Assembly: GCA_963822245.1 (NCBI GenBank)
Contig: CAWGGR010000006.1
Location: 144,779 to 208,778 of the forward strand
Source of the DNA: an uncultured Solirubrobacteraceae bacterium
Lineage (GTDB): Bacteria > Actinomycetota > Thermoleophilia > Solirubrobacterales > Solirubrobacteraceae
Reading direction: 5' to 3'
Length of the DNA stretch: 64,000 bases
Shown: one piece after another, positions 17,140 to 45,554 of the stretch
Layout of the letters: the number at the start of each line of letters is the position of its first letter
Position numbering within the stretch: the stretch's first letter is position 1
Program-made: the position numbers and the translations under genes
Notes under the pieces: model-generated
Databases searched by the model: none
What the model was told of the DNA's origin: nothing
Seen by the model: only the letters and a program-made list of their open reading frames with translations

Positions 17140-17646
17140 CTAACCGGAACTGTCGAACGACGTGCCGCTGCCTTCGTTCGCGGGCGCGGAGTGCGTGCTC
17201 GGCGGCGTCCCGCCGCTCGTCGGCGACGGCGTGCTCGCGGGGGTGCTCGGCGGCGCGCTCGCTGGCGCCGTGTGCTGGACGGGCGCCGTCTCCGCCGGCG
17301 CGCTGACGCTCGGCGCGAGCACGACGTGCGCTTTCGCCGGTGTGCTCGGCGTCGGGGCCGCATGGCTCACGACCGCCGCTGGGGGCGGTGGTGGCGGCGG
17401 GCTCGTCAGCGCCAGCTCCGGCGCACCGCCGAGCGCGGCCGGCACGACGACCGTGGATGTGCTCACGGGCAGCCGCAGCGGGGCGACTTCGCGCGGGGCA
17501 GGGACCTGGCGCTCCCTGCGACCGATGGTGTAGAAGCCCGCGAACACAGCCGCGCACAGGCATGCCGTGAGCAGCAGGGTGCGCATGTCGATGCGGGTGT
17601 CGCGAGGGACCGGGGCGCCGCGCGAGCTGATGTTGAGGCTGTTCAT
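17140..17646 (-). CDS. Pro/Thr/Ser-rich single-TM protein
   Basis: TM LLLTACLCAAVFAGFYTIG then a low-complexity Pro-rich tail; TGATG overlap with the adhesin stop. Confidence 0.65.
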   Translation of the reverse strand: MNSLNISSRGAPVPRDTRIDMRTLLLTACLCAAVFAGFYTIGRRERQVPAPREVAPLRLPVSTSTVVVPAALGGAPELALTSPPPPPPPAAVVSHAAPTPSTPAKAHVVLAPSVSAPAETAPVQHTAPASAPPSTPASTPSPTSGGTPPSTHSAPANEGSGTSFDSSG

Positions 17647-20600
17647 CAGGTCGGGCAGGCGATCGGGATCGTGCCGGCGGGGTTCAGGCAGCTGTCAAAG
17701 CGTGACGGCAGCTTGCCGCGGCGGACCGTGAAGCGCATGAACTTGCCGATCTCGCCGGGACTCGAGACCTTGATTTCGAGGATCACGCCCGCAGGCAGCG
17801 AGCGCTCGAAGCGGCGCAGCGTGACGAGCACTGTGCCGAGCTTGCTCTTGCTCGCGCCCGATGAGGCGACAACGCTCTCGGACTTGCTCGGGCAGCCGTG
17901 CCCGCGACAGGTGACGTTGACGGTCGCGCCAACCGGGGCGAGCACCGTCAGCAGGCTCACCTTGACGCTCAGCGCGTGCTCGGTGCCGGCGATGCGCACG
18001 ACCGGGAAGGGCTGCATCACTTTGACCGCCGGCGCGGTCACCGTGATCGTCTTGCTGACCGTGCTGCTGAGGCCGTTCGCGTCGGTCACACGCAGCTGCA
18101 CGACGTGCGGGCCGACGGTCGTGAAGATCGTGCTGAGCACGGCCGAGCCCGGCTGGAAGACGTTGTTGCCCGCGACCGCCCACGCGTATCCGGTGATCGC
18201 GCTGTCAGCATCGCTCGAGGTCGACGCGAGCGTCACGGGTTCGCCGGTGTGGGGCGCGCTCGGCAGCCACTCGAACGAGGCGACCGGCGGCACCGGCGTC
18301 GACGTCGCGGGCGCCGCAGGCGGCGCGAGCACGGTGAAGGTCGACGGTTCGCTGACGCCGATGTTGCCGACGTCATCGGCCTGTTCGGCGAGCAGTGTGT
18401 AGGTGCCGGGGGCGAGGCCCGAGAAGACCGTCGACCAGCTCCCGATCGCGACCGGGACCGTCACCGTCTGCAGCGCCGCGCCGCCCACGCCGCTGCCCGC
18501 ATACAGGTGCACGGCGACGGCCGGCTGATCGCCCGCCGCCCTCCCCGCCGCGCCGGAGGCGGTCTCCGCCGTGCCCGTGGTCGATGTCCCCGTGACGGGC
18601 GCCGTGAGCGTCACCGCGGGCGCATCCGCGTCGACCGTGAACACCGCCGTCGCGGCGCTGATCGTGGTCGGACCTCCGGGTTCGCGCTCTTCTGCCTGCG
18701 CGACGTAGCTGACGCCGTCGCTGAGGCTCGGCACCGGCCCAACGGCCCAGTCCGCGGTCGTGAGCGCAACGGGCGTCGGCGTCGGCGTTACCAGCCGGTA
18801 GGACGGCCATTCATAGATCTTGACCGTCACCGTGTTGCCTTCGCCGGTGGGCGCCGTGCCGTGAAAGGTCGGGTTGGCGCTCGAGAACAGTTCCGTGCCG
18901 CGCGGCACGCCGACGTTTTCAAGCGTCACCACGGTCGTTACCGTGAATGACACCGGTTCGCTCGTGCCGATGTTGCCGGCGCTATCCGCCTGCTCGGCGA
19001 TCACCGTGTAGACGCTGCCGTTTTTCAGCGGTTTCACGGGTGACACCGCCCAGTGTCCTGCCTTCACCGCAACTTCGATGACTTCCACCGGCGTTCCCGA
19101 CGCCGTCGCGCCGAGATAGATCTTCAGGTCGACGGTTGGGTCATCGCCGGTGAGTTCCCCGGCGGGGCCGCTGAATGTCGGTTTGAGTTCGTTCAGGCCC
19201 GCGTCGTTCGCGGGCGTCGTGATGCCGACGGCCGGCGGCGTCGTGTCGATCGTGAACGTCATCGCGGCGCTCCTGCCGACGTTGCCGGCCTCATCTTCCT
19301 GGGTCGCCTGCGCGGTGTAGGTGCCGTCCGCCAGGTGCGGCACGTCAAACGACCATGTGTCGCCGCTGACCGTCCCGGTCCCGGAGGCGGCGATCGTGCC
19401 CTTGGCTTCGCCGCCCTCGAAGACGGTGACCGCGACCGTCGCGGCGTCGCCGGGTTCGGTCCCCGCGGTGCCGCTCAGCGTCGGTTCCGTGTCTTTGCCC
19501 GGCGTCGGCACCGTGTTGATCGTGACCTTCGGCTTGACCGTGTCGATCCTGAACTCGACCGGGGCGCTGACGCCGACGTTGCCCGCGTCGTCTGACTGTT
19601 CGGCGACCGCGGTGTACGTGCCGTCGCCGAGCGTCGCACCGCTCGTGCCGGTGCTCCACGCGCCCGCTTTCGCGGGCGCGGTCAGCGTCTCGGATGGGCT
19701 CCCCGAGGCCGTTGCGCCCGCGTAGAGCTTGACCGTCACCGTCGGTTCATCGCCCGCAAGCTCACCGGCGAGGCCGCTGAACGTCGGCTTCGGGACGTTC
19801 GAGGCGCCGGCTGTCGGCGTCAGCAGCGAGACGACGGGCGGCGTCGAATCAATCGTGAACGTCGCCTTCTTGCTGAAGCCGTGATTGCCCGCTTCGTCTG
19901 ACTGTTCGGCGATCACCGTGTAGGTGCCGTCAGCGAGGTGCGGAGCGGTGAAGCTCCAGTCGCCGGTTTTCAGTGGCGCCGGGCCCTGCGCGGCGACCGT
20001 GCCCGTGGGTTCGCTGCCTTCATAGATCGTGACGTTCACCGCGCCGTCGCCGCTCGCGACGCTGCCGGTGCCGGTGAAGGTCGGCGTCGAGTCGTTCATC
20101 AGCACCGCAACCGGGTTCAACGTGACGAGCGGCTTGACGGTGTCGATGACGAATGTCCGCGGCGGCGTGCTCGTGCCGAGGTTGCCCGCCGCGTCTGACT
20201 GTTCGGCGATCGCCGTGTAGGTGCCGTCGGCGAGATGTGCAGGCGTGAAGGACCAGCCGGCGCCGCTCACCACCCCGAGCCCACTCGCGGCGATCGTCCC
20301 TGACGGCGAGCTGCCCGCGAAGATCGTGACTTTCACGTTCGCGGAGTCGCCCGCTTCGGTCCCGCGCACGCCGGTCAGCGTCGGCGTCGGGTTGTTCCCC
20401 GGAGATGGCACTTCGGCCATCGTCACCTTCGGCGCGACCGTGTCGATCGTGAACGTCACCGCTTTGCTCGAGCCGACGTTGCCCGCTTCATCCGACTGCG
20501 TAGCGATCGCGGTGTACGTGCCGTCGGCGAGGTGCGGGCCGGTGCTGCCCGTCGTCCAGCTGCCGGCGGCTGCCGGCACGTCGAGGGTGTCCGCGGGGCT

Positions 20601-22643
20601 GCCGCTCGTTCCTTCCCCGGCGTAGATCTTCAGCACGACCGTCTGCAGATCGCCGCTCGCCTGCCCGGCGCCGCCGCCGAACGTCGGCTGCGAGACATTC
20701 AGCGCGCCCGCCGCGGGGCTCGTCAGCGAGACTTTCGGGGCGCTCGTATCGACCGTGAAGGTCACCGGTGCGCTCACGCCGACGTTGCCCGCCGCGTCGA
20801 GCTGTTCGGCCACGGCCGTGTATGTGCCATCAGCGAGCGCGGGCACCGCATTCGTGCTCCACGCGCCCGCTTCGATGCTGACGTGCGAGAGCGTCTGCAC
20901 GGGCGTCCCTGTCGGCGTCGCGCCGCTGTAGATCTTCAGCGCGAGGGACGGTTCATCGCCGACGGCCTGGCCGCCGCTGCCGCTGAAGGTGAGCGTCGCC
21001 GCTTTTGAGATCGTGCCAGGCGCCGGCGCCGTGATCGCGACCAGCGGGGCCGTCGTGTCGACGGTGAACATAATCGTTTTGCTGACGCCGAGATTGCCCG
21101 CGTCATCGGACTGTTCGGCGATCGCGGTGTAGGTGCCGTCGGCGAGGTGCGGCGAGGTGAACGACCACGCGCCCCCGCTCACCGTCGGGGTGCCGGAGGC
21201 TGCTGGCGTCCCCGACGCCGCGGAGCCTTCGTAGATCTTCACCGCGACAGTCGCGGAATCGCCCGATTCCGTGCCGCCGGCGCCGCTCAGCGTCGGTTTC
21301 GGGTTTTTCGTCGGCGAGGCGAGCGTGTTGAGCGTGACCGCCGGCTTGACGGTGTCGATCGTGAACGGCACGCTGTTGCTCGTGCCGATGTTGCCCGCTT
21401 CATCGCTCTGCACAGCTTCCGCTGTGTAGCTGGCGTCGGCCAGATGCACCGATTTGTACGTCCACACGCCGCCGATCACCGGCACGGTTTCGACGACCGC
21501 CGGTTTGTCCGCCGAGGGTTTGCCCTTGAAGATCGTCAGCGTGACCGTCGGGCGGTCGCCCAGCAGCGTCCCCGCGGTGCCGCTCACCGTCGGCGTCGGG
21601 TTGTTCGACGCTGGCGCCATCGCGTTGATCGTCACGACCGGCTTGACGGTGTCGATCGTGAACGTCGTGCTCGCGCTGAGGCCGACGTTGCCCGCTTCAT
21701 CGCTCTGGGATGCGCGCGCGGTGTAGACGCCGTCGCTGAGGTGGGCCGCGGCGAACGACCAGGTGGCCCCGGTCGGGGTGACTTCGGCCGTCTGCGCGAC
21801 CGTCCCTTCCGGCGCGCTGCCGTGGTAGATCGTGACGGTCACGTGCGGGTGGTCGCCGGGCGCGATGCCGGCGCCGCCCGCCAGCGTCGGCGTCGCGTTG
21901 TTGCTCCACGGCGGCATGCTCGTCAGCGTCACCGCGGGCGCGGTCGTGTCGACCGTGAACGTCACCGCCTTGCTCGTGCCGAGGTTGCCGGCTGCGTCTT
22001 CCTGGGAGACCTGGGCGGTGTAGGTGCCGTCCGCGAGTTCAGCGACGGCGTGCGTCCAGCCGCCGCTTTCAACCGGGACGCTGGCCGATTCGACCGTCGC
22101 GCCGGCGAGCGTGGCGCCGGCGTGGATCGTCAGCTCGACGTTCTTGTCGTCGCCCGCTGACTCGCCCGCTTCGCCGCTGAGCGTCGGCGTCGAGTCTCTG
22201 CTCGGAGTCGGCACCGTGTCCAGCGTGACCACCGGCTTGGTCGTGTCGACCGTGAACGTGACTTCGGCGCTGCCGGTTTCCGCTTCGATCGTCTGTTCGG
22301 CGACGGCCGTATATTCCCCCTGTTCGAGCGGTTCCGGGGAGATTTCCCAGGTGCCTTCGAGAAACGGCAGGGCGAACTGCTGTTGCACCGGTGTGCCGCC
22401 GGCAACGGAGCCGCTGTAGATGTCGAGCGTGACGAACCCGCCCAGCGGGGCGCTCGTCGTGCCGCTGAACAGCGGCGTCCGGCTGCGTGTGAAGCTGCCG
22501 TTGAGCGGTTCGCTGATCGTGATGCCCGGCGGCGCCGCGAGCGCGTCCGCCGCGGGCATCGCGACGAGCGCGAGCAGCGCCAGCAGCGCGGCGGCAAGCG
22601 CGCGCGCAAGGGTCCTGCCAACCACTGTCCGAACGCCGCTCAC
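17646..22643 (-). CDS. Large secreted adhesin: 14 bacterial Ig-like repeats, PKD domain, Cys-containing C-terminal domain (~1665 aa)
   Basis: Likely GTG start at 22643 with signal peptide (ARALAAALLALLALVAMPAADALA); 14 counted units ending GTYTAxAEQSDxAGNxGxSxxxTFTIDT; PKD-like PVASF...YAW...VQLRVTD. Confidence 0.9.
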   Translation of the reverse strand: MSGVRTVVGRTLARALAAALLALLALVAMPAADALAAPPGITISEPLNGSFTRSRTPLFSGTTSAPLGGFVTLDIYSGSVAGGTPVQQQFALPFLEGTWEISPEPLEQGEYTAVAEQTIEAETGSAEVTFTVDTTKPVVTLDTVPTPSRDSTPTLSGEAGESAGDDKNVELTIHAGATLAGATVESASVPVESGGWTHAVAELADGTYTAQVSQEDAAGNLGTSKAVTFTVDTTAPAVTLTSMPPWSNNATPTLAGGAGIAPGDHPHVTVTIYHGSAPEGTVAQTAEVTPTGATWSFAAAHLSDGVYTARASQSDEAGNVGLSASTTFTIDTVKPVVTINAMAPASNNPTPTVSGTAGTLLGDRPTVTLTIFKGKPSADKPAVVETVPVIGGVWTYKSVHLADASYTAEAVQSDEAGNIGTSNSVPFTIDTVKPAVTLNTLASPTKNPKPTLSGAGGTESGDSATVAVKIYEGSAASGTPAASGTPTVSGGAWSFTSPHLADGTYTAIAEQSDDAGNLGVSKTIMFTVDTTAPLVAITAPAPGTISKAATLTFSGSGGQAVGDEPSLALKIYSGATPTGTPVQTLSHVSIEAGAWSTNAVPALADGTYTAVAEQLDAAGNVGVSAPVTFTVDTSAPKVSLTSPAAGALNVSQPTFGGGAGQASGDLQTVVLKIYAGEGTSGSPADTLDVPAAAGSWTTGSTGPHLADGTYTAIATQSDEAGNVGSSKAVTFTIDTVAPKVTMAEVPSPGNNPTPTLTGVRGTEAGDSANVKVTIFAGSSPSGTIAASGLGVVSGAGWSFTPAHLADGTYTAIAEQSDAAGNLGTSTPPRTFVIDTVKPLVTLNPVAVLMNDSTPTFTGTGSVASGDGAVNVTIYEGSEPTGTVAAQGPAPLKTGDWSFTAPHLADGTYTVIAEQSDEAGNHGFSKKATFTIDSTPPVVSLLTPTAGASNVPKPTFSGLAGELAGDEPTVTVKLYAGATASGSPSETLTAPAKAGAWSTGTSGATLGDGTYTAVAEQSDDAGNVGVSAPVEFRIDTVKPKVTINTVPTPGKDTEPTLSGTAGTEPGDAATVAVTVFEGGEAKGTIAASGTGTVSGDTWSFDVPHLADGTYTAQATQEDEAGNVGRSAAMTFTIDTTPPAVGITTPANDAGLNELKPTFSGPAGELTGDDPTVDLKIYLGATASGTPVEVIEVAVKAGHWAVSPVKPLKNGSVYTVIAEQADSAGNIGTSEPVSFTVTTVVTLENVGVPRGTELFSSANPTFHGTAPTGEGNTVTVKIYEWPSYRLVTPTPTPVALTTADWAVGPVPSLSDGVSYVAQAEEREPGGPTTISAATAVFTVDADAPAVTLTAPVTGTSTTGTAETASGAAGRAAGDQPAVAVHLYAGSGVGGAALQTVTVPVAIGSWSTVFSGLAPGTYTLLAEQADDVGNIGVSEPSTFTVLAPPAAPATSTPVPPVASFEWLPSAPHTGEPVTLASTSSDADSAITGYAWAVAGNNVFQPGSAVLSTIFTTVGPHVVQLRVTDANGLSSTVSKTITVTAPAVKVMQPFPVVRIAGTEHALSVKVSLLTVLAPVGATVNVTCRGHGCPSKSESVVASSGASKSKLGTVLVTLRRFERSLPAGVILEIKVSSPGEIGKFMRFTVRRGKLPSRFDSCLNPAGTIPIACPT

Positions 22644-34432: not shown

Positions 34433-34720
34433 TCAGAAGGCGATCGGCTCGGGCTGCTCGCCCGCGCGTTCGCGGCGGATGCCCTCAAGGTACACGGCCA
34501 TGATCCCGATCACCGCTCCGGGCGCCGCGTACAGGACGACCTTGATGTCCGTCGCCTTTTCGCCCGGGATCGTGAAGCCGCTGATGATGAAGCCGAGGAT
34601 GATCCCCCCGAACAGCGAGCCGACGAACGCGCCGACGATCCCGCCCCAGAAGCGGTCGGGCATGAAGATCGTGTAGTGCCAGATCGCCAGCCCCATCATC
34701 ACCCAGCCGAGCAGCGCCAT
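34433..34720 (-). CDS. Small membrane protein (3 TM), 95 aa
   Basis: MALLGWVMMGLAIWHYTIFMPDRFWGGIVGAF...; TGATG overlap with the secDF stop. Confidence 0.75.
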   Translation of the reverse strand: MALLGWVMMGLAIWHYTIFMPDRFWGGIVGAFVGSLFGGIILGFIISGFTIPGEKATDIKVVLYAAPGAVIGIMAVYLEGIRRERAGEQPEPIAF

Positions 34721-37700
34721 CAGCGTGACCTGCCGTGGCGGCGGTTGCGGGGCCGTTTGTTCTTCGGCCGCGGCTTCGCGTCGTCCTTGAGCACGAGGTC
34801 CTCGGGCGTCAGGTCCGCGGTCGGGTCGCGCTCCGGCGCAGCCGGCGGAGTCGCCGTCGCGCTGCTGCCCGAGCGCTGCTCGCCGGGCTGGGCGCCGGCG
34901 CGCCTGCCCGCGGCGCCGGCGCCGGGTGAGACGTCGGCGTCGATGTCGCGGACCAGTTCCTGGAACTCGTCCCTCGAGATCTGCTGGCCGGGCTGCTCCG
35001 GAGAGGTCAGGCTGCCGCTGCGCGTCCGGCGCTTCCTGACCTCCGGCTCGACGTCCTCCTGCGCACCGCTCGCGGTCGTCGCGTAGGCGGGGACGGCGCC
35101 CAGTTCGCGCACGATCCGGGCGCGCCGGACGCGATAGGTGCCCTCGCGCTCCTTCCAGTGCGTGAGCACAGGCGAGGCGATGAAGATCGAGGAGTAGGCA
35201 CCCGAGGCGATCCCGATGGTCAGCGCGAAGGCGAAGTCCTTCAGCGTTTCGCCGCCGAACAGCAGCAACGCCGTGACCGGGAGCAGCGTGCAGAAGCTCG
35301 TCGCCAGCGATCTCGTGAGCACCTCGGACATCGATCGGTTGACGATCTGCGAGAACGCCGCACGCGGCATTCTCGGCACGTTCTCGCGCACACGATCGAA
35401 CACGATGATCGTGTCGTAGAGCGAATATCCGAGGATCGTCAACAGCGCCGCCACCGTCGCGCTCGTCACTTCCCGGCCGGTCAGCGAATACACGCCGGCG
35501 GTGATCAGCAGGTCGTGCATCAGCGCGATCAGCACCGGCACCGCATACTTCCACTCGAAGCGCAGGGCGATATAGGCGGAGATCACCAGCAGCGACGCGA
35601 TGATCGCGATCAGCGCGCTCTTCGCGACGGTTTTCCCGAAGGTCGGCCCGATCGAGGTCGAGGAGAAGTTCTTCGTGCCCGGCGTTTTGCCGCTCCCGAA
35701 CTTGTCGTTGAGCGCCGATTCCGCGTGTTTGACGGCATCCGGTGCGAGCGTCTTGGTCGAGATCTGGAAGCCGTTGCCGCCGATGTTCTTGTTGCTTATT
35801 TTCTGCACCTCGGCGTCTTTGATGCCGGCCGACTTGAGCGTCGCGGTGACTTCACCCTCGCTCGCGGACCTGATCAGGGCGGTCTGGATACGCGTCCCGG
35901 ACTTGAAGTCGATGCCGAAGTTCAGGCCCTTGCCGCCGATCGCCAGGGCGCCGATCAGGAGGATCGTGCCGGACAGCGAGAAGAACCACTTCGATGCGCC
36001 CATGAAGTCGAACGTCCAGCCGCGCCCGCGCCGCGCGGCGCCGAGCATCGACGGGTGCGAGACGAATTTCGAGCGGCCCATCACGCCGAGCGCCGCGCGT
36101 GTGGCGAGCACCGCCGTGAACAGCGTCAGCAACGTCCCGATGCCCAGCGTGAACGCGAACCCCTTGACTTCGGAGGTCGCCAGCGCGAACAGGATGAAGG
36201 CGGTCATGAACGTCACCACGTTCGCGTCGACGATCGCCGCAAAACCGCGTTTGTATCCCGTCGCGATGCCGGAGATCACCGATCTGCCGCCGCGGATCTC
36301 CTCCTTCACGCGCTCGAAGATGACGATGTTCGCGTCCGCCGCGATGCCGATCGTGAGGATCAGGCCGGCGATGCCCGGCAGCGTCAGCGTGATCGGGATC
36401 AGCTTGATCAGCGCGAAGAAGTAGATGCCGTAGATGACGAGCCCGCCGACGGCGATCGCGCCGAGCATGCGGTAGAAGACGAGCAGGAACAGGCAGACGA
36501 TCGCGAAGCCGATGAGGCCCGCGAGCAGGCCTTCCTTGAGCGCCTGTTTGCCGAGCGTCGCAGACACCTGCGAGCGCGAGATCAGCACGAGCTTGATCGG
36601 CAGCGCGCCGGACTGCAGCTCGCTCGCGAGGTTCTGGGCGGTCGTGATCGTGAAGCCGCCGGAGATCTCCGAGCCGGTCGACGCATCGATCCCTTCCGGG
36701 TACTTCGTGTAGTCGATCGACGGCGCGGTGATCAGCTGGCCGTCGAGAGCCACCGCGAAGTGCTGCAGCGCGGCTTCCTTGCCGACCCCGGGAAGCTGGG
36801 CTTCCTGGCCGCGCTCTGCGATTTTCTTGGTGACCTGTTCGAACACCGTCTTGCCGTGCGAGGTGAAGCCGAAGGTGACATTCGGCTGCCCGGTGCCGCC
36901 GCCGCCTTCGTCGAAGCCCTGCTGCGGGTTCGTGATGTCCGCGCCGTTGAGCACCGGTTCGTCGTTGAGCACATACCAGCTGTTCGGCGAGGGGTTGCCG
37001 ACCTTCCCGTTCGCCGATTCTTCGGGGTGGGCCTGCACGAGCACCGTCCCCGGATTGACACGGACCGCCTTGACCTTGGCGCCGGCGGGCAGCGTGACGC
37101 CGGTGTACAGCGCTTTTTCGGTTTCCGCCGGAGCGCACGTCACCTTGTCGCTCGCGCACAGGACCTTCTGGTGCGTGGTGTCGAGCAGGTACCAGCTGCC
37201 GAAGATGCATTCGCCGACCTGCGCGGCGGTGCAGCCTTTCGACCAGGTCGTGTCGGATTTGCGCAGGATCGGCGGGCGTTTGGCCGCGCGCAGGATCGCC
37301 TCGTACTCCGGCAGCCCGGCGGCGACGCCGCCGGCGCCGGTCGAGGTCGCATCGCCGGTGACCGTCCCTTCGGTCGCCGCCGACTGACCGTTGGCGCCGA
37401 TCACGTTCGGCTCCCAGTCATAGAACTGCAGCTGCGCGGTCCGGCCGACCTCTTCTTCGGCCTGGCGCACGCTGCCGACGGCGGGCAGCGCGACCGCGAT
37501 CTGGTTGCTGCCCGCGAGCCCGATTTCAGGCTGCGCGACGCCAAGCTGGTCGACGCGCTTACGCATGATGTCAATCGCGCGGTTTAGCGATTCTGTATCG
37601 ACCTTCGCCTGCGCAGTCGGCTTGCCCTGATAGGTCAGCTGCACGCCGCCCTTGAGGTCGAGGCCGAGGCGCGTCGGCTTCGTCGCGATCACGACGAGAG

Positions 37701-37761
37701 ACACCGCGACCAACCCGAAGACGAGCAGCAGGATCAGCAGATTCGTGCGGCGATCGGTCAT
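34720..37761 (-). CDS. secDF: Fused protein translocase subunit SecDF
   Basis: LGLDLKGG, ADANIVIFERVKEE, GIDFKSGT, YSLYDTIIVFDRVREN. Confidence 0.97.
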   Translation of the reverse strand: MTDRRTNLLILLLVFGLVAVSLVVIATKPTRLGLDLKGGVQLTYQGKPTAQAKVDTESLNRAIDIMRKRVDQLGVAQPEIGLAGSNQIAVALPAVGSVRQAEEEVGRTAQLQFYDWEPNVIGANGQSAATEGTVTGDATSTGAGGVAAGLPEYEAILRAAKRPPILRKSDTTWSKGCTAAQVGECIFGSWYLLDTTHQKVLCASDKVTCAPAETEKALYTGVTLPAGAKVKAVRVNPGTVLVQAHPEESANGKVGNPSPNSWYVLNDEPVLNGADITNPQQGFDEGGGGTGQPNVTFGFTSHGKTVFEQVTKKIAERGQEAQLPGVGKEAALQHFAVALDGQLITAPSIDYTKYPEGIDASTGSEISGGFTITTAQNLASELQSGALPIKLVLISRSQVSATLGKQALKEGLLAGLIGFAIVCLFLLVFYRMLGAIAVGGLVIYGIYFFALIKLIPITLTLPGIAGLILTIGIAADANIVIFERVKEEIRGGRSVISGIATGYKRGFAAIVDANVVTFMTAFILFALATSEVKGFAFTLGIGTLLTLFTAVLATRAALGVMGRSKFVSHPSMLGAARRGRGWTFDFMGASKWFFSLSGTILLIGALAIGGKGLNFGIDFKSGTRIQTALIRSASEGEVTATLKSAGIKDAEVQKISNKNIGGNGFQISTKTLAPDAVKHAESALNDKFGSGKTPGTKNFSSTSIGPTFGKTVAKSALIAIIASLLVISAYIALRFEWKYAVPVLIALMHDLLITAGVYSLTGREVTSATVAALLTILGYSLYDTIIVFDRVRENVPRMPRAAFSQIVNRSMSEVLTRSLATSFCTLLPVTALLLFGGETLKDFAFALTIGIASGAYSSIFIASPVLTHWKEREGTYRVRRARIVRELGAVPAYATTASGAQEDVEPEVRKRRTRSGSLTSPEQPGQQISRDEFQELVRDIDADVSPGAGAAGRRAGAQPGEQRSGSSATATPPAAPERDPTADLTPEDLVLKDDAKPRPKNKRPRNRRHGRSR

Positions 37762-37839: not shown

Positions 37840-38289
37840 CTACTTGTCGGGCGTGAGGACAAGCAGCAGCCCACCGTCGTCGTCGTAGGCTGGAAACATG
37901 TCGGCTTTGGCGTTCGCCGCGTTGTCGCGTTCGCCGCTGACGCGCACCGGCACCTCGAGCGCGCGCACGCCCCACTCGAGCACCGTCGCGACCGGATCGT
38001 CGCCGTTTGAGAAGTTCAGGCCGAGCACCTCCTCGACGCGCTGGCCGATAACGTCTTCCTCCTCGAGGCCCGTGAACGCGAACGAGTTCTTGCCGCAGCC
38101 GACCACGCGGCCCTCGCCGTCGCAGACGAAGAAGGCGGCGTCCGGCGCCGGGTAGTAGTCGTCGAGCAGTTCGAACAGGAACGCGAAGCCGCACTTCGCA
38201 CAGCCCTTGCGTTGACGCGTGAACCCGATGTTGCGGTCGAGCTCGCTGGTGCGGTGACCGCAGTTGGGGCAGATGAACGGGTGGGCCAT
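37840..38289 (-). CDS. Zn-ribbon + PAS-like domain protein
   Basis: CPNCGH and CAKCGF; then FVCDGEGRVV...FTG...VIG PAS pattern. Confidence 0.72.
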   Translation of the reverse strand: MAHPFICPNCGHRTSELDRNIGFTRQRKGCAKCGFAFLFELLDDYYPAPDAAFFVCDGEGRVVGCGKNSFAFTGLEEEDVIGQRVEEVLGLNFSNGDDPVATVLEWGVRALEVPVRVSGERDNAANAKADMFPAYDDDGGLLLVLTPDK

Positions 38290-43436: not shown

Positions 43437-45554
43437 ATGACGCTGCGAGCGACACGCTCAGTTCACGGATGGAGGCGGCGCGGGACGCTCGCGCTACTCG
43501 CGCTGGCCATCGGCCTTGCGATCCCGTCGGCCTGGACGCCCGCGGCGTCCGCCACCGAACTCGGCGAAGTCACCGAGTTCAAAGTCCCGCTCGAAGGCGA
43601 GACTCAAGGAATCACGGCCGGCGCCGAAGGCGACCTGTGGTTCACCCAGAGCAACGTCCAGATGAAAAGCGGCCAGGTCGGGCGGATCACCCCGACGGGC
43701 GAAATCACCGAGTTCCCCACCGGCATCACAAGCTTCCCGAGCGAGAGCGGGATCACGACCGGGCTCGAAGGCGACCTCTGGTTCGACCACCTCAGCGGGC
43801 AGGGCGTCGGCCGGATGACCCCGAGCGGAGAAGGCACCGATTTCCCGGACGGCGGCGGCGAACCCGAGCTCGTGGCTATCACCACCGGCTCCGAAGGCAA
43901 CCTCTGGTTCACCCAGGACAGCGTCGGGTCGATCGGGGAGATGACCCCGACGGGGGTCGTCACGCCAGTCCCCACCGGCAACGCCTGGACCACGCCGAAC
44001 TTCGACACCCAGGGGATCACAACCGGCCCCGAAGGCGACATCTGGTTCACGGAGTACAGCGCTCATGCGATCGGACGGGCGACGCCGGGCGGCGTGGTCA
44101 CGAAATTCACAAGCGGCATCCCCAGCGGGGCCGAACCGACCGCGATCGTCTCCGGGCCGGAAGGCGACCTCTGGTTCACCGAGGACGGCAGCGAATTCGG
44201 CATCGGGCGGATCACGCCGAGCGGCTCGGTGAAGGTGTTCAACACCGGCAAAGCCACCGCGCGCCCGGACGGGATCGCGGCCGGGACCGAAGGCGATCTG
44301 TGGTTCACGGAATTCGAAAACGGCAAGATCACCAGGTTCACGCCCTCCGGCGAAATCACGCGCTTTCAGACCGGCAACCCGGAGTCCGGCAGCGACACGC
44401 CGGAGGCGATCACCGCCGGGCCCGAAGGCAACATGTGGTTCACCCAGGGCGAAAGCAACGAGATCGGCCGCATCTACACCGGCGGCGGCGCTGCGCGCCC
44501 CGCGGTGACGAAGCTCACGCCCAACGACGGCTCCGCCGAAGGCGGCTCGGAAGTCACGATCACCGGGCTCAACCTCGAAGGCGTCGAAGGCGTGAGCTTC
44601 GGCTCGACGCCTGCGCTCGAAGTCACGCCGGTCTCGGCGAACACCGTGATCGCGATCGCGCCGCCGGGCGTCGCCGGCAAAACCGTCAACGTGACCGTCT
44701 CGACCAGCGCCGGCTCCAGCCCGATCAGCCGCGGCGACCGCTTCAAGTACGACGCCGATCCGCTCAAACTCACGCCGAAAGCACTCAAGCTCGCGACCGC
44801 CGGCGTCCCCTACGCGGACACCCTCCACGGCATCGGGGGTACCGAACCCTATGACTTCAAGGTCGTCTCCGGGACGCTTCCCGCGGGCATCGAACTGACC
44901 GCCGGCGGGGAACTCACGGGCACGCCGGAAGCGGCCGGGACAAGCACGTTCGTGGTGAAGGTGAGCGACTCCTCGCTGCCGATGCTCACGGCGACCAGGC
45001 AATACACGCTGGAAACGCAACTCGACATCACGCCCAGCTCGCTCGGACGCATGACCGCGGGCAGCACCGTCTCCAAGGAATTCGCCGTCACGGGCGGAAC
45101 GCCGCCATACACCCTCGTGCTGACGAACCTCACCTCGATCGGGCTCGAATTCTCCTTCGACGCCCTGACCGGCCAGGGCCTGCTCAGCGGGGTGCCCGCG
45201 ATCGCGGGCAGTTACACGCTGACCGCCGAAGCAACCGACGGCGCGGACCCCCAGAACAGCGGCACGCGCACGTTCAAAGTCAAAGTCGGCCTCGGCCTGC
45301 TGCCGGCGGCGCTGCCCGGAGCAACCGTCGGCACGGCATATGAAACGGGGATCGAAGTGCTCGGCGGCTCGGGTTCCTACGCGTACAACGTCAGCGAAGG
45401 CACGCTGCCGGCAGGCCTCGAACTGGGCGCGAGCAGCGGCCGGATCGAAGGCACGCCGACCGAAGCGGGCAAAAGCAAGTTCGCCGTGACCGTCACCGAC
45501 CACATCACTGGGCTGACGGCGACGATCAAGTACCACCTCAAGGTGGCGCCCTGA
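43437..45554 (+). CDS. Secreted Vgb (streptogramin lyase)-like 7-bladed propeller + IPT/TIG + putative Ig (He_PIG-like) domains
   Basis: Signal peptide; seven GxEG[D/N]xWF repeats; IPT (P.VT.L.P..G...GG..VTITG); LPAG/ISG-type Ig repeats. Confidence 0.88.
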   Translation: MTLRATRSVHGWRRRGTLALLALAIGLAIPSAWTPAASATELGEVTEFKVPLEGETQGITAGAEGDLWFTQSNVQMKSGQVGRITPTGEITEFPTGITSFPSESGITTGLEGDLWFDHLSGQGVGRMTPSGEGTDFPDGGGEPELVAITTGSEGNLWFTQDSVGSIGEMTPTGVVTPVPTGNAWTTPNFDTQGITTGPEGDIWFTEYSAHAIGRATPGGVVTKFTSGIPSGAEPTAIVSGPEGDLWFTEDGSEFGIGRITPSGSVKVFNTGKATARPDGIAAGTEGDLWFTEFENGKITRFTPSGEITRFQTGNPESGSDTPEAITAGPEGNMWFTQGESNEIGRIYTGGGAARPAVTKLTPNDGSAEGGSEVTITGLNLEGVEGVSFGSTPALEVTPVSANTVIAIAPPGVAGKTVNVTVSTSAGSSPISRGDRFKYDADPLKLTPKALKLATAGVPYADTLHGIGGTEPYDFKVVSGTLPAGIELTAGGELTGTPEAAGTSTFVVKVSDSSLPMLTATRQYTLETQLDITPSSLGRMTAGSTVSKEFAVTGGTPPYTLVLTNLTSIGLEFSFDALTGQGLLSGVPAIAGSYTLTAEATDGADPQNSGTRTFKVKVGLGLLPAALPGATVGTAYETGIEVLGGSGSYAYNVSEGTLPAGLELGASSGRIEGTPTEAGKSKFAVTVTDHITGLTATIKYHLKVAP

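Follow-up and report, generated by a model that had tools for sequence, protein, structure and literature searches.

The window examined here is a 64,000-nucleotide (nt) stretch from an uncultured soil actinobacterium of the Solirubrobacteraceae, order Solirubrobacterales (GenBank assembly GCA_963822245.1, contig CAWGGR010000006.1, positions 144,779 to 208,778 of the forward strand). On its minus strand lies secDF, which encodes a fused subunit of the protein-export machinery, and the subject of this analysis is the choice between the two glutamate codons, GAA and GAG, within this gene and across the genus from which it comes. The gene and its parts, numbered from the first letter of the window, are:

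34720..37761, minus strand: secDF, fused protein-export subunit with 12 transmembrane (TM) segments, 1013 amino acids (aa), matching PDB 3AQP at E=2.6e-97, with 24 GAA and 25 GAG
36526..37683, minus strand: P1 extracytoplasmic domain, residues 27-412, 17 GAA and 7 GAG
36082..36525, minus strand: TM2-TM6 block with the inside loop FERVKEE and the outside loop ATSEVKG
35614..35925, minus strand: P4 extracytoplasmic domain, residues 613-716, 2 GAA and 2 GAG
35164..35613, minus strand: TM8-TM12 block with the inside loops RFEWK, DRVREN and MSEV and the outside loops TGREVT and GGETLKD
34723..35163, minus strand: cytoplasmic C-terminal tail, residues 867-1013, low complexity, the tail proper with 8 GAG and 2 GAA

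The predicted product aligned over its full length to the SecDF structures of T. thermophilus (3AQP, E=2.6e-97) and D. radiodurans (5XAN, E=5.9e-97), and the conserved FERxKEE, GYSxxD and DRxREN motifs were aligned as well. With homology spanning TM1, P1, TM2-6, TM7, P4 and TM8-12, it is assigned to SecDF. Its topology was taken from the alignment with the solved structures and from established knowledge of the fold: the N terminus lies inside, followed by TM1, P1 outside, TM2-6, TM7, P4 outside, TM8-12 and the cytoplasmic tail. A codon-by-codon recount of the 49 Glu codons gave 24 GAA and 25 GAG, distributed by topology. P1 contained 17 GAA and 7 GAG, the short outside loops (E531, E764, E838) were 3/3 GAA, the inside loops (E483, 487, 488, 736, 793, 813, 871, 873) were 8/8 GAG, the tail had 2 GAA and 8 GAG, and P4 two of each; E871 and E873, at the start of the tail, were scored with the inside loops and not with the tail. 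Pooled, this amounts to 22 GAA and 9 GAG outside versus 2 and 16 inside (odds ratio 19.6, Fisher p=7e-5). The initial annotation, a hand count, had given the same figures: 17/24 GAA in P1, 3/3 GAA in the outside loops ATSEVK, TGREVT and GGETLK, 8/8 GAG in the inside loops FERVKEE, RFEWK, VREN, MSEV and WKERE, 8/10 GAG in the tail and a mixed P4 (2/4). The rule can be followed from loop to loop in SecDF because this protein, which is inherited vertically, has portions on either side of the membrane.

Codon identity at individual sites was compared in 80 secDF orthologues that represent different species within the genus and share 72-80% amino-acid identity with the query. In 74 of them the Glu columns were nearly binary for GAA versus GAG. 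Within P1, E57 (67 GAA, 0 GAG), E79 (74 GAA, 0 GAG) and E131 (66 GAA, 0 GAG) stand beside E104 (0 GAA, 62 GAG), E117 (0 GAA, 71 GAG) and E381 (0 GAA, 72 GAG). The outside loops were GAA at E531 (ATSEVKG; 71 GAA, 0 GAG), E764 (TGREVT; 72 GAA, 0 GAG) and, less strictly, E838 (GGETLKD; 50 GAA, 6 GAG). All three glutamates of the inside FERVKEE loop (E483, E487 and E488; 0 GAA and 72 GAG each) and E793 (0 GAA, 72 GAG) were GAG, and the inside loops RFEWK, DRVREN and MSEV showed 0-1 GAA among about 70 orthologues. In P4, E635 was GAG (1 GAA, 56 GAG), and E637 was GAA in 33 orthologues, GAG in none and Gln in 31. Column 993 held 42 GAA, 22 GAC and a single GAG. The outside P1 sites 104, 117, 152, 365 and 381 stay fixed as GAG; sister families mostly carry hydrophobic residues or Gln at these sites, which suggests that they are semi-buried positions.

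The among-column variance, divided by p(1-p), was 0.87 for GAA/GAG in the secDF alignment. Ordinary synonymous pairs reached 0.02-0.37 and AAA/AAG 0.48; Ser TCG/AGC, a pair not joined by a single mutation, reached 0.92. Fitch parsimony on a tree with 74 tips, with rates normalised by 2p(1-p), found 77 switches between GAA and GAG over 7755 branch-sites, a rate of 0.020. Other A/G- and C/T-ending pairs with usable minor-codon frequency switched at 0.107-0.63 (the very rare TTT at 1.6) and C/G third-position pairs at 0.14-0.20, which makes the GAA/GAG switch 5-30 times rarer than other synonymous switches. More than half of the switches (43 of 77) fell in the disordered cytoplasmic tail, the sole part of secDF that mixes both codons. 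Changes from GAA to GAC (89) outnumbered those from GAA to GAG, and GAA exchanged with AAC 53 times, versus 3 times for GAG. As judged from these alignments, GAA evolves as if it were non-synonymous to GAG, one of the marks of sense-codon reassignment.

For comparison outside the genus we used 16 genomes of other families in the same order. There, both codons occurred in 12 of the 15 conserved-Glu columns of secDF, with a variance ratio of 0.09. Sites 79, 764 and 838 are conserved Glu, encoded by GAG in 12-13 of the 16 genomes. These positions are therefore not GAA in relatives that lack the bias, and some ancestral outside Glu codons were recoded to GAA in the ancestor of the genus. On whether the outside glutamates are lineage-specific gains, a question raised by the initial annotation, the sites are divided: some GAA sites are recoded ancestral Glu, and at others the sister families have Asp, Asn, Gly or Gln.

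The pattern first noticed in secDF recurred in the polytopic proteins of the genome at large. TM segments were located with a hydrophobicity-window finder and oriented by the positive-inside rule in 376 proteins. The GAA share was 17.5-19% in inside loops versus 31-36% in outside loops (Fisher p 1e-22 to 1e-47), and in loops of at most 40 aa it was 0.174 versus 0.350 (p=3e-12). The contrast persisted with secDF left out. Within genes, outside exceeded inside in 95 and the reverse held in 54 (Wilcoxon p=1e-5). Because the predictor is crude, these contrasts are underestimates. No difference between inside and outside was found for AAA/AAG, CAA/CAG or GAT/GAC in the same 376 proteins.

A cytoplasmic neighbor of secDF served as a control:

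37840..38289, minus strand: conserved 149-aa cytoplasmic zinc-ribbon protein

In this protein, columns fixed for GAG (78-80 of 80 genomes) lie beside columns with 67/13, 74/5 and 46/34 GAA/GAG. The non-equivalence of the two codons thus extends to a cytoplasmic protein. This result and the outside P1 sites fixed as GAG qualify the original proposal that codon choice relates to the side of the membrane on which a residue ends up; the loop-level pattern and the polytopic test bear it out, and membrane side is a strong correlate of the GAA/GAG choice but not the whole rule. The gene itself carries an N-terminal CxxC...CxxC zinc ribbon and is located between secDF and ruvB in 80 of 80 genomes examined.

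The genome that contains the window (G000) is a 3.44-Mb metagenome-assembled genome (MAG) with 70% GC, 8 contigs and 93% completeness, in which a custom codon-model caller predicted 2989 genes. GAA accounts for 20% of all Glu codons, and the distribution of GAA share over the genes has two modes, below 0.2 and at 0.5-0.98. The upper mode consists almost entirely of proteins with a signal peptide or lipobox, plus flagellin, hook-associated proteins and pilins; 61 high-GAA genes that had been counted as cytoplasmic are start-miscalled signal peptides, Tat (twin-arginine translocation) substrates and flagellar type III substrates (FliC, FlgK, FlgL, FliD and rod proteins). With the first 40 codons skipped, the GAA share was 0.55 in 286 predicted secreted versus 0.13 in 1702 cytoplasmic proteins. 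Since the effect persists beyond these codons, and GAA is spread along whole mature proteins of up to 1996 aa, the bias is not confined to signal peptides or 5' ends. Nor does it resemble translational selection linked to expression, as essentially Glu alone shifts and the core, highly expressed RpoB, RpoC, DnaK, EF-G, RecA and AtpD contain 0-15% GAA. Only the Glu, Lys and Arg families differ between the two classes, every other synonymous family being alike, with no shift for CAA, GAT or AAT. The Lys shift is weaker (AAA 0.29 in secreted versus 0.12 in cytoplasmic proteins). Genes with a higher GAA share also use more AAA for Lys (rising from 7% to 43%) and more AGR for Arg (from 5% to 22%); this could be a mutational by-product of the abundance of GAA (GAA to AAA to AGA) or a second, weaker codon split. 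GC content at third codon positions (GC3), computed without Glu codons, was nearly equal in the two classes (0.889 vs 0.913), and the flanking bases from -6 to +6 say very little about whether GAA or GAG is used (less than 0.02 bit). The split by location is real and strong.

Substrates of the Sec, lipoprotein, Tat, flagellar type III and pilin pathways are all rich in GAA. Two exported proteins with signal peptides in the window illustrate this:

17646..22625, minus strand: large exported protein with signal peptide, 57 GAA and 15 GAG
43437..45554, plus strand: exported protein with signal peptide, 38 GAA and 11 GAG

Outside the window, the exported proteins at C2:476337-477921 and C1:77212-79951 of the same genome carry collagen-like (Gly-Lys-Glu)n runs and long 'EAVTEAKL' repeats; the runs are spelled GGC AAA GAA, and their Lys is mostly AAA.

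Aragorn and Rfam together identified a complete set of 45 tRNAs in G000, including an ordinary tRNA-Glu(CUC); a canonical tRNA-Glu(UUC) was not among them. Each genus genome, two closed genomes included, has exactly one canonical tRNA-Glu, and its anticodon was CTC in all five in which the sequence was read. Canonical tRNA-Glu(UUC) was found in none of the 24 genus genomes but in three sister-family genomes (G029, G032, G039). In one of the five genus sequences read (locus L130, G009:C8:36429-36523), the anticodon loop of the canonical tRNA-Glu contains an extra T (8-nt loop, 'CTTCTCA'), either an assembly error or a variant tRNA.

The sole tRNA with the anticodon UUC in G000 lies outside the window:

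G000 contig C1:946930-947026: five-armed tRNA(UUC), 97 nt, 66.6 bits to RF00005

Its fifth arm is a 7-bp hairpin inside the D-loop, closed by a UUCG loop (UACG in variants); the insert of 7 bp plus tetraloop measures about 18 nt, or 23-24 nt with its flanks. The acceptor stem and D-arm are not Glu-like. Within G000 the tRNA comes nearest to the tRNA-Arg genes, and its best overall match is a sister-family tRNA-Lys(UUU), from which it differs by U36 to C plus the insertion. Of 24 genus genomes, 23 carry the tRNA at 88-100% identity along the full length (loci L001-L023), and a full-length copy was not found in the 16 genomes of other families. Across 8 distinct variants the anticodon loop CUUUCAA is invariant, and compensatory changes at 5 pairs occur in the acceptor stem, the T stem and the extra arm. 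The model has 28 pairs, with 99.1% of cells paired, and its score was reached in none of 500 shuffles. The molecule thus has the RF00005 cloverleaf, supported by covariation, of an elongator tRNA, and the D-loop arm most likely stays in the mature tRNA. On this gene content, the five-armed tRNA is the only possible reader of GAA in the genus. The canonical GAA reader was lost, and a recruited and remodelled tRNA took its place; the loss of a canonical tRNA together with a new tRNA of other ancestry bearing the same anticodon is a second mark of reassignment.

Searches of viral contigs for the exact five-armed pattern gave no match. A structural pattern retrieved 11 IMG/VR contigs with a tRNA(UUC) and D-loops of 20-36 nt (loci L170-L181), one of which matched an HK97 capsid model. 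For one complete 82.8-kb phage, codons were counted by hand:

capsid: 23 GAA, 18 GAG
LamG-like protein: 13 GAA, 4 GAG
364-aa protein: 20 GAA, 4 GAG
prohead protease/scaffold: 17 GAA, 23 GAG
QueC: 3 GAA, 12 GAG
ParB-like protein: 7 GAA, 21 GAG

The capsid and two likely virion proteins thus have 56-83% GAA, the prohead protease/scaffold 42% and the enzymes 20-25%. Virion proteins never cross a membrane yet work outside the cell, and these counts are only suggestive of virion proteins following the location rule. As the rule is common to Sec, Tat, flagellar and pilin substrates and to the virion proteins of this one phage, its correlate is the final location of the protein and not the export route.

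Several observations bear on the residue that is inserted at GAA. Counting GAA as -1 gives 184 high-GAA proteins a net charge per residue of -0.025 (sd 0.029), which matches the cytoplasmic proteome (-0.026); a residue with a charge of +1 would bring it to +0.079. An extreme case is a protein of 1996 aa with 22 Asp, 6 GAG, 216 GAA, 196 Lys and 38 Arg, and (Gly-Lys-GAA)n collagen-like repeats and 'xAVTxAKL' repeats are present as well. The net charge of P1 lies inside the sister-family range (-39 to +6) only if the GAA residue is acidic. GAA also occupies the conserved Glu of SecF 'GLEF', FliC 'ATEM' and FlgK 'LDEEM'. The GAA residue behaves as acidic and Glu-like. At other critical positions GAA is rare or absent: among the common variants listed for the Walker-B DEP of ABC proteins there is one GAA spelling only (LLVLDePA), the HExxH motif was 19/19 GAG, the Glu of CuA CxExCG is GAG, and GAA is avoided in flagellin 'RVREL'. 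In a handful of informative sites, found with loose regular expressions in the few such enzymes available, GAA was never at an invariant Asp, Asn, Ser or Thr of an exported enzyme. A second glutamyl-tRNA synthetase (GluRS) was considered and ruled out, each genus genome having one GluRS copy.

Another candidate was an operon outside the window:

G000 contig C1:476347-481363: second lysyl-tRNA synthetase (LysRS2) overlapping the start of an operon for KamD, KamE and KamB (reactivase) of lysine 5,6-aminomutase

Of 25 genus genomes (counting G000), 21 have the operon, and none of the 16 sister-family genomes does. In LysRS2, five normally conserved residues in or around the lysine pocket are changed, including a Glu to Cys neighbor and HNPEF to HSPEF; we take the pocket changes to be Y280M, N424S and F426D in the numbering of E. 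coli LysU. The equivalent of Glu428, the residue that binds the lysine amine, is kept. We regard the operon as probably separate from the GAA machinery, as it is a pseudogene in G003 and the amine-binding residue is kept; LysRS2 may charge a lysine isomer or be an analogue-resistant LysRS.

We lean, with moderate confidence, towards the view that GAA and GAG are functionally non-equivalent in this genus and that the non-equivalence is tied to the five-armed tRNA. The canonical tRNA-Glu(UUC) has disappeared, GAG is left to the ordinary tRNA-Glu(CUC), and GAA has no other reader than the tRNA(UUC) descended from tRNA-Lys(UUU), with its extra D-loop hairpin. Selection holds each acidic site to one codon, with GAA strongly preferred at solvent-exposed sites outside the cytoplasm and GAG kept inside and at buried or critical glutamates. 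Because the rule acts per residue and independently of the export route, the product of the five-armed tRNA is probably not functionally identical to the Glu inserted at GAG; it may be a modified or non-standard acidic residue, or the charging may be heterogeneous. The more specific proposal, that the tRNA inserts an acidic residue other than plain glutamate (a modified or non-canonical amino acid resembling Glu or Asp), made on the tRNA or by an unrecognised synthetase, and that this residue supplies the negative charge of the genus outside the cytoplasm, seems to us unlikely. Several points weigh against a changed residue. GAA sites match plain Glu in distant homologues and in the sister families about as often as GAG sites do, so that homology gives no sign of a changed meaning. 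The charge-balance argument could partly reflect Glu ancestry and not present chemistry. A dedicated synthetase or modifying enzyme for the GAA tRNA was not found in the genus genomes. In LysRS2, the retained Glu428 equivalent looks suited to a cationic substrate, and in G003 the LysRS2/Kam operon is frameshifted throughout while the tRNA is intact and high-GAA genes persist. Finally, the signal-peptide and topology predictors are crude, all genomes compared are MAGs and the evidence is genomic.

The alternative to which we give most room, although we hold it rather doubtful, is that GAA simply means Glu and that selection acts on the decoding speed or accuracy of the five-armed tRNA, which exposed outside sites would favor and critical or cytoplasmic sites would avoid by using GAG. 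GAA at universally conserved Glu sites agrees with it, as does the single GluRS, whose main identity element, the UUC anticodon, is present in the five-armed tRNA; the avoidance of GAA at catalytic Glu is also what non-optimal codons often show. Decoding alone, however, explains poorly why no other amino acid has a location-dependent codon choice, why single short loops are resolved within one polypeptide made by one ribosome, and why Sec, Tat, flagellar type III and pilin substrates behave alike, together with the capsid and likely virion proteins of one phage. Some outside sites are fixed as GAG and some cytoplasmic sites are GAA, and column 993 takes GAA (42) and GAC (22) but GAG only once, where GAG would be expected if both codons were Glu. 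The pattern resolves loops of six residues in one polypeptide and is fixed per site, which excludes gene-level explanations (expression, horizontal transfer, a bldA-like regulon, mRNA targeting). For a codon regulon in which the level or modification of the GAA tRNA gates translation of the exoproteome, as with bldA/TTA or the Magnaporthe effectors, we therefore see little chance. It would fit the bimodality of the GAA share by gene class, the single dedicated tRNA of which phages carry their own copy, and the fungal analogy (bioRxiv 10.1101/2025.11.10.687658), but it can yield neither the inside/outside pattern within secDF and other polytopic proteins nor the per-site fixation; the housekeeping gene secDF has 24 GAA, and CAA is unshifted.

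That GAA has been reassigned to another standard amino acid (Asp, Asn, Gln or Lys) is less probable still. The body of the tRNA is Lys-like, U35-C36 is shared with tRNA-Asp, GAA columns exchange with GAC/GAT (99 changes) and with AAC (53 versus 3 for GAG), and there is the precedent of ACA, reassigned from Thr to Asp in Acidimicrobiales. Against Lys stand the P-loop lysines, of which 0 of 116 are GAA, and the charge balance, which excludes +1; P1 would have a net charge of +28, versus -39 to +6 in sister families. Asp and Gln were rejected because the normalised exchange of GAA with GAC/GAT and with CAA/CAG is about 0.02 (our own arithmetic from parsimony counts), far under synonymous rates. 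The invariant Asp and Asn of one S1 protease, one SGNH hydrolase and one LepB use ordinary codons, and conserved Glu sites are GAA: instead of aligning to another amino acid, as a reassigned codon would, GAA lines up with Glu at GLEF, ATEM and LDEEM and in columns 79, 764 and 838. An artefact or neutral by-product (MAG chimerism, horizontal transfer, local GC, codon context or low divergence) is hardly credible. MAGs make up the whole genome set and exported genes evolve fast, but individual genes show the pattern internally, and it is repeated in 74-80 species, closed genomes included; GC3 and the other codon families are equal between the classes, codon context contributes <0.02 bit, and the alignment that shows the split is saturated for other synonymous pairs.

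In the full-text literature searched, we found no description of a compartment-linked choice of Glu codons or of a tRNA in bacteria that has an extra arm in its D-loop, and no described mechanism explains the GAA/GAG split together with the five-armed tRNA. Bacterial sense-codon reassignments are known from the Codetta screen (eLife 2021, PMC8629427) and from ACA in Acidimicrobiales (Thr to Asp; bioRxiv 10.64898/2026.05.03.722492). As in those cases, a rare A-ending codon is affected in high-GC actinobacteria, the canonical tRNA is replaced by one of other ancestry with the same anticodon, and the change is limited to one clade. Unlike them, GAA continues at conserved sites to line up with the amino acid it had originally, which leaves homology inference with no sign of reassignment; it is also common, at 20% of Glu codons and as much as 98% in exported proteins, and its use is divided by compartment. 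The selenocysteine and pyrrolysine systems likewise use one dedicated tRNA that departs from the standard cloverleaf and give a codon a meaning distinct from that of its neighbor; in contrast to them, no dedicated synthetase, biosynthesis genes or elongation factor was identified here, the codon is a sense rather than a stop codon, and each proteome contains the residue thousands of times.

In Magnaporthe oryzae, secreted cytoplasmic effectors show an enrichment of AAA, CAA and GAA, which was linked to thiolation of tRNA U34 (bioRxiv 10.1101/2025.11.10.687658). Common to both systems are the enrichment of GAA, and partly AAA, in the secreted class and the involvement of U34 tRNAs; the fungal bias is gene-level and regulatory, whereas here CAA is unshifted, the pattern runs loop by loop within proteins and sites are fixed. 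Zalucki, Power and Jennings have reportedly worked on the rare-codon bias of signal peptides. Such a bias has been described for bacterial signal peptides and the 5' ends of secreted genes (PMC2833160) and also ties codon choice to export, but it concerns the 5' end and many amino acids, unlike the present case of whole mature exported parts and essentially Glu alone. The bldA (tRNA-Leu UAA)/TTA regulon of Streptomyces (PMC4932002) again involves one rare A-ending codon and one tRNA in a high-GC actinobacterium, with the codon concentrated in a functional gene class. TTA, however, occurs once or a few times per gene, acts as a switch and follows no residue-level topology rule, and a gene-level, topology-independent regulon differs from the inside/outside pattern in secDF and the 376 polytopic proteins and from the unshifted CAA. 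Archaeal tRNA introns occur at non-canonical positions including the D-loop, and the bulge-helix-bulge splicing system is absent in bacteria. The five-armed tRNA resembles such introns in having extra sequence inside the D-loop, but this is a short hairpin that covaries as a structural arm.

In this genus, selection separates two codons that are synonyms in the code table, and it does so for each residue according to the residue's final location in the cell. If the residues differ chemically, this would be a new natural change of the genetic code hidden from homology screens, with a new tRNA architecture and a new extracellular building block; a non-Glu residue, if true, would count as a 21st-plus amino acid of natural origin, one that a sense codon specifies and whose use is divided between compartments. 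If both codons are plain Glu, some property of decoding by one tRNA would matter for extracellular positions, whether the protein leaves by the Sec, Tat, flagellar or pilin route, and apparently also for phage virion proteins, which undergo no export; this would be an unknown layer of information in coding sequences. In either case membrane topology and extracytoplasmic residues can be predicted from the GAA share in this clade, and standard codon models and dN/dS estimates (ratios of non-synonymous to synonymous substitution rates) are wrong for genomes of the genus.

The genus also varies in its type of aspartyl-tRNA synthetase (AspRS; genus genomes G001-G024 and the window genome). Genomes G000 and G018 have a long bacterial enzyme, and the others have only a short (~445 aa) archaeal-like one of class IIb. 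From the sequences, this difference within the genus looks like xenologous displacement.

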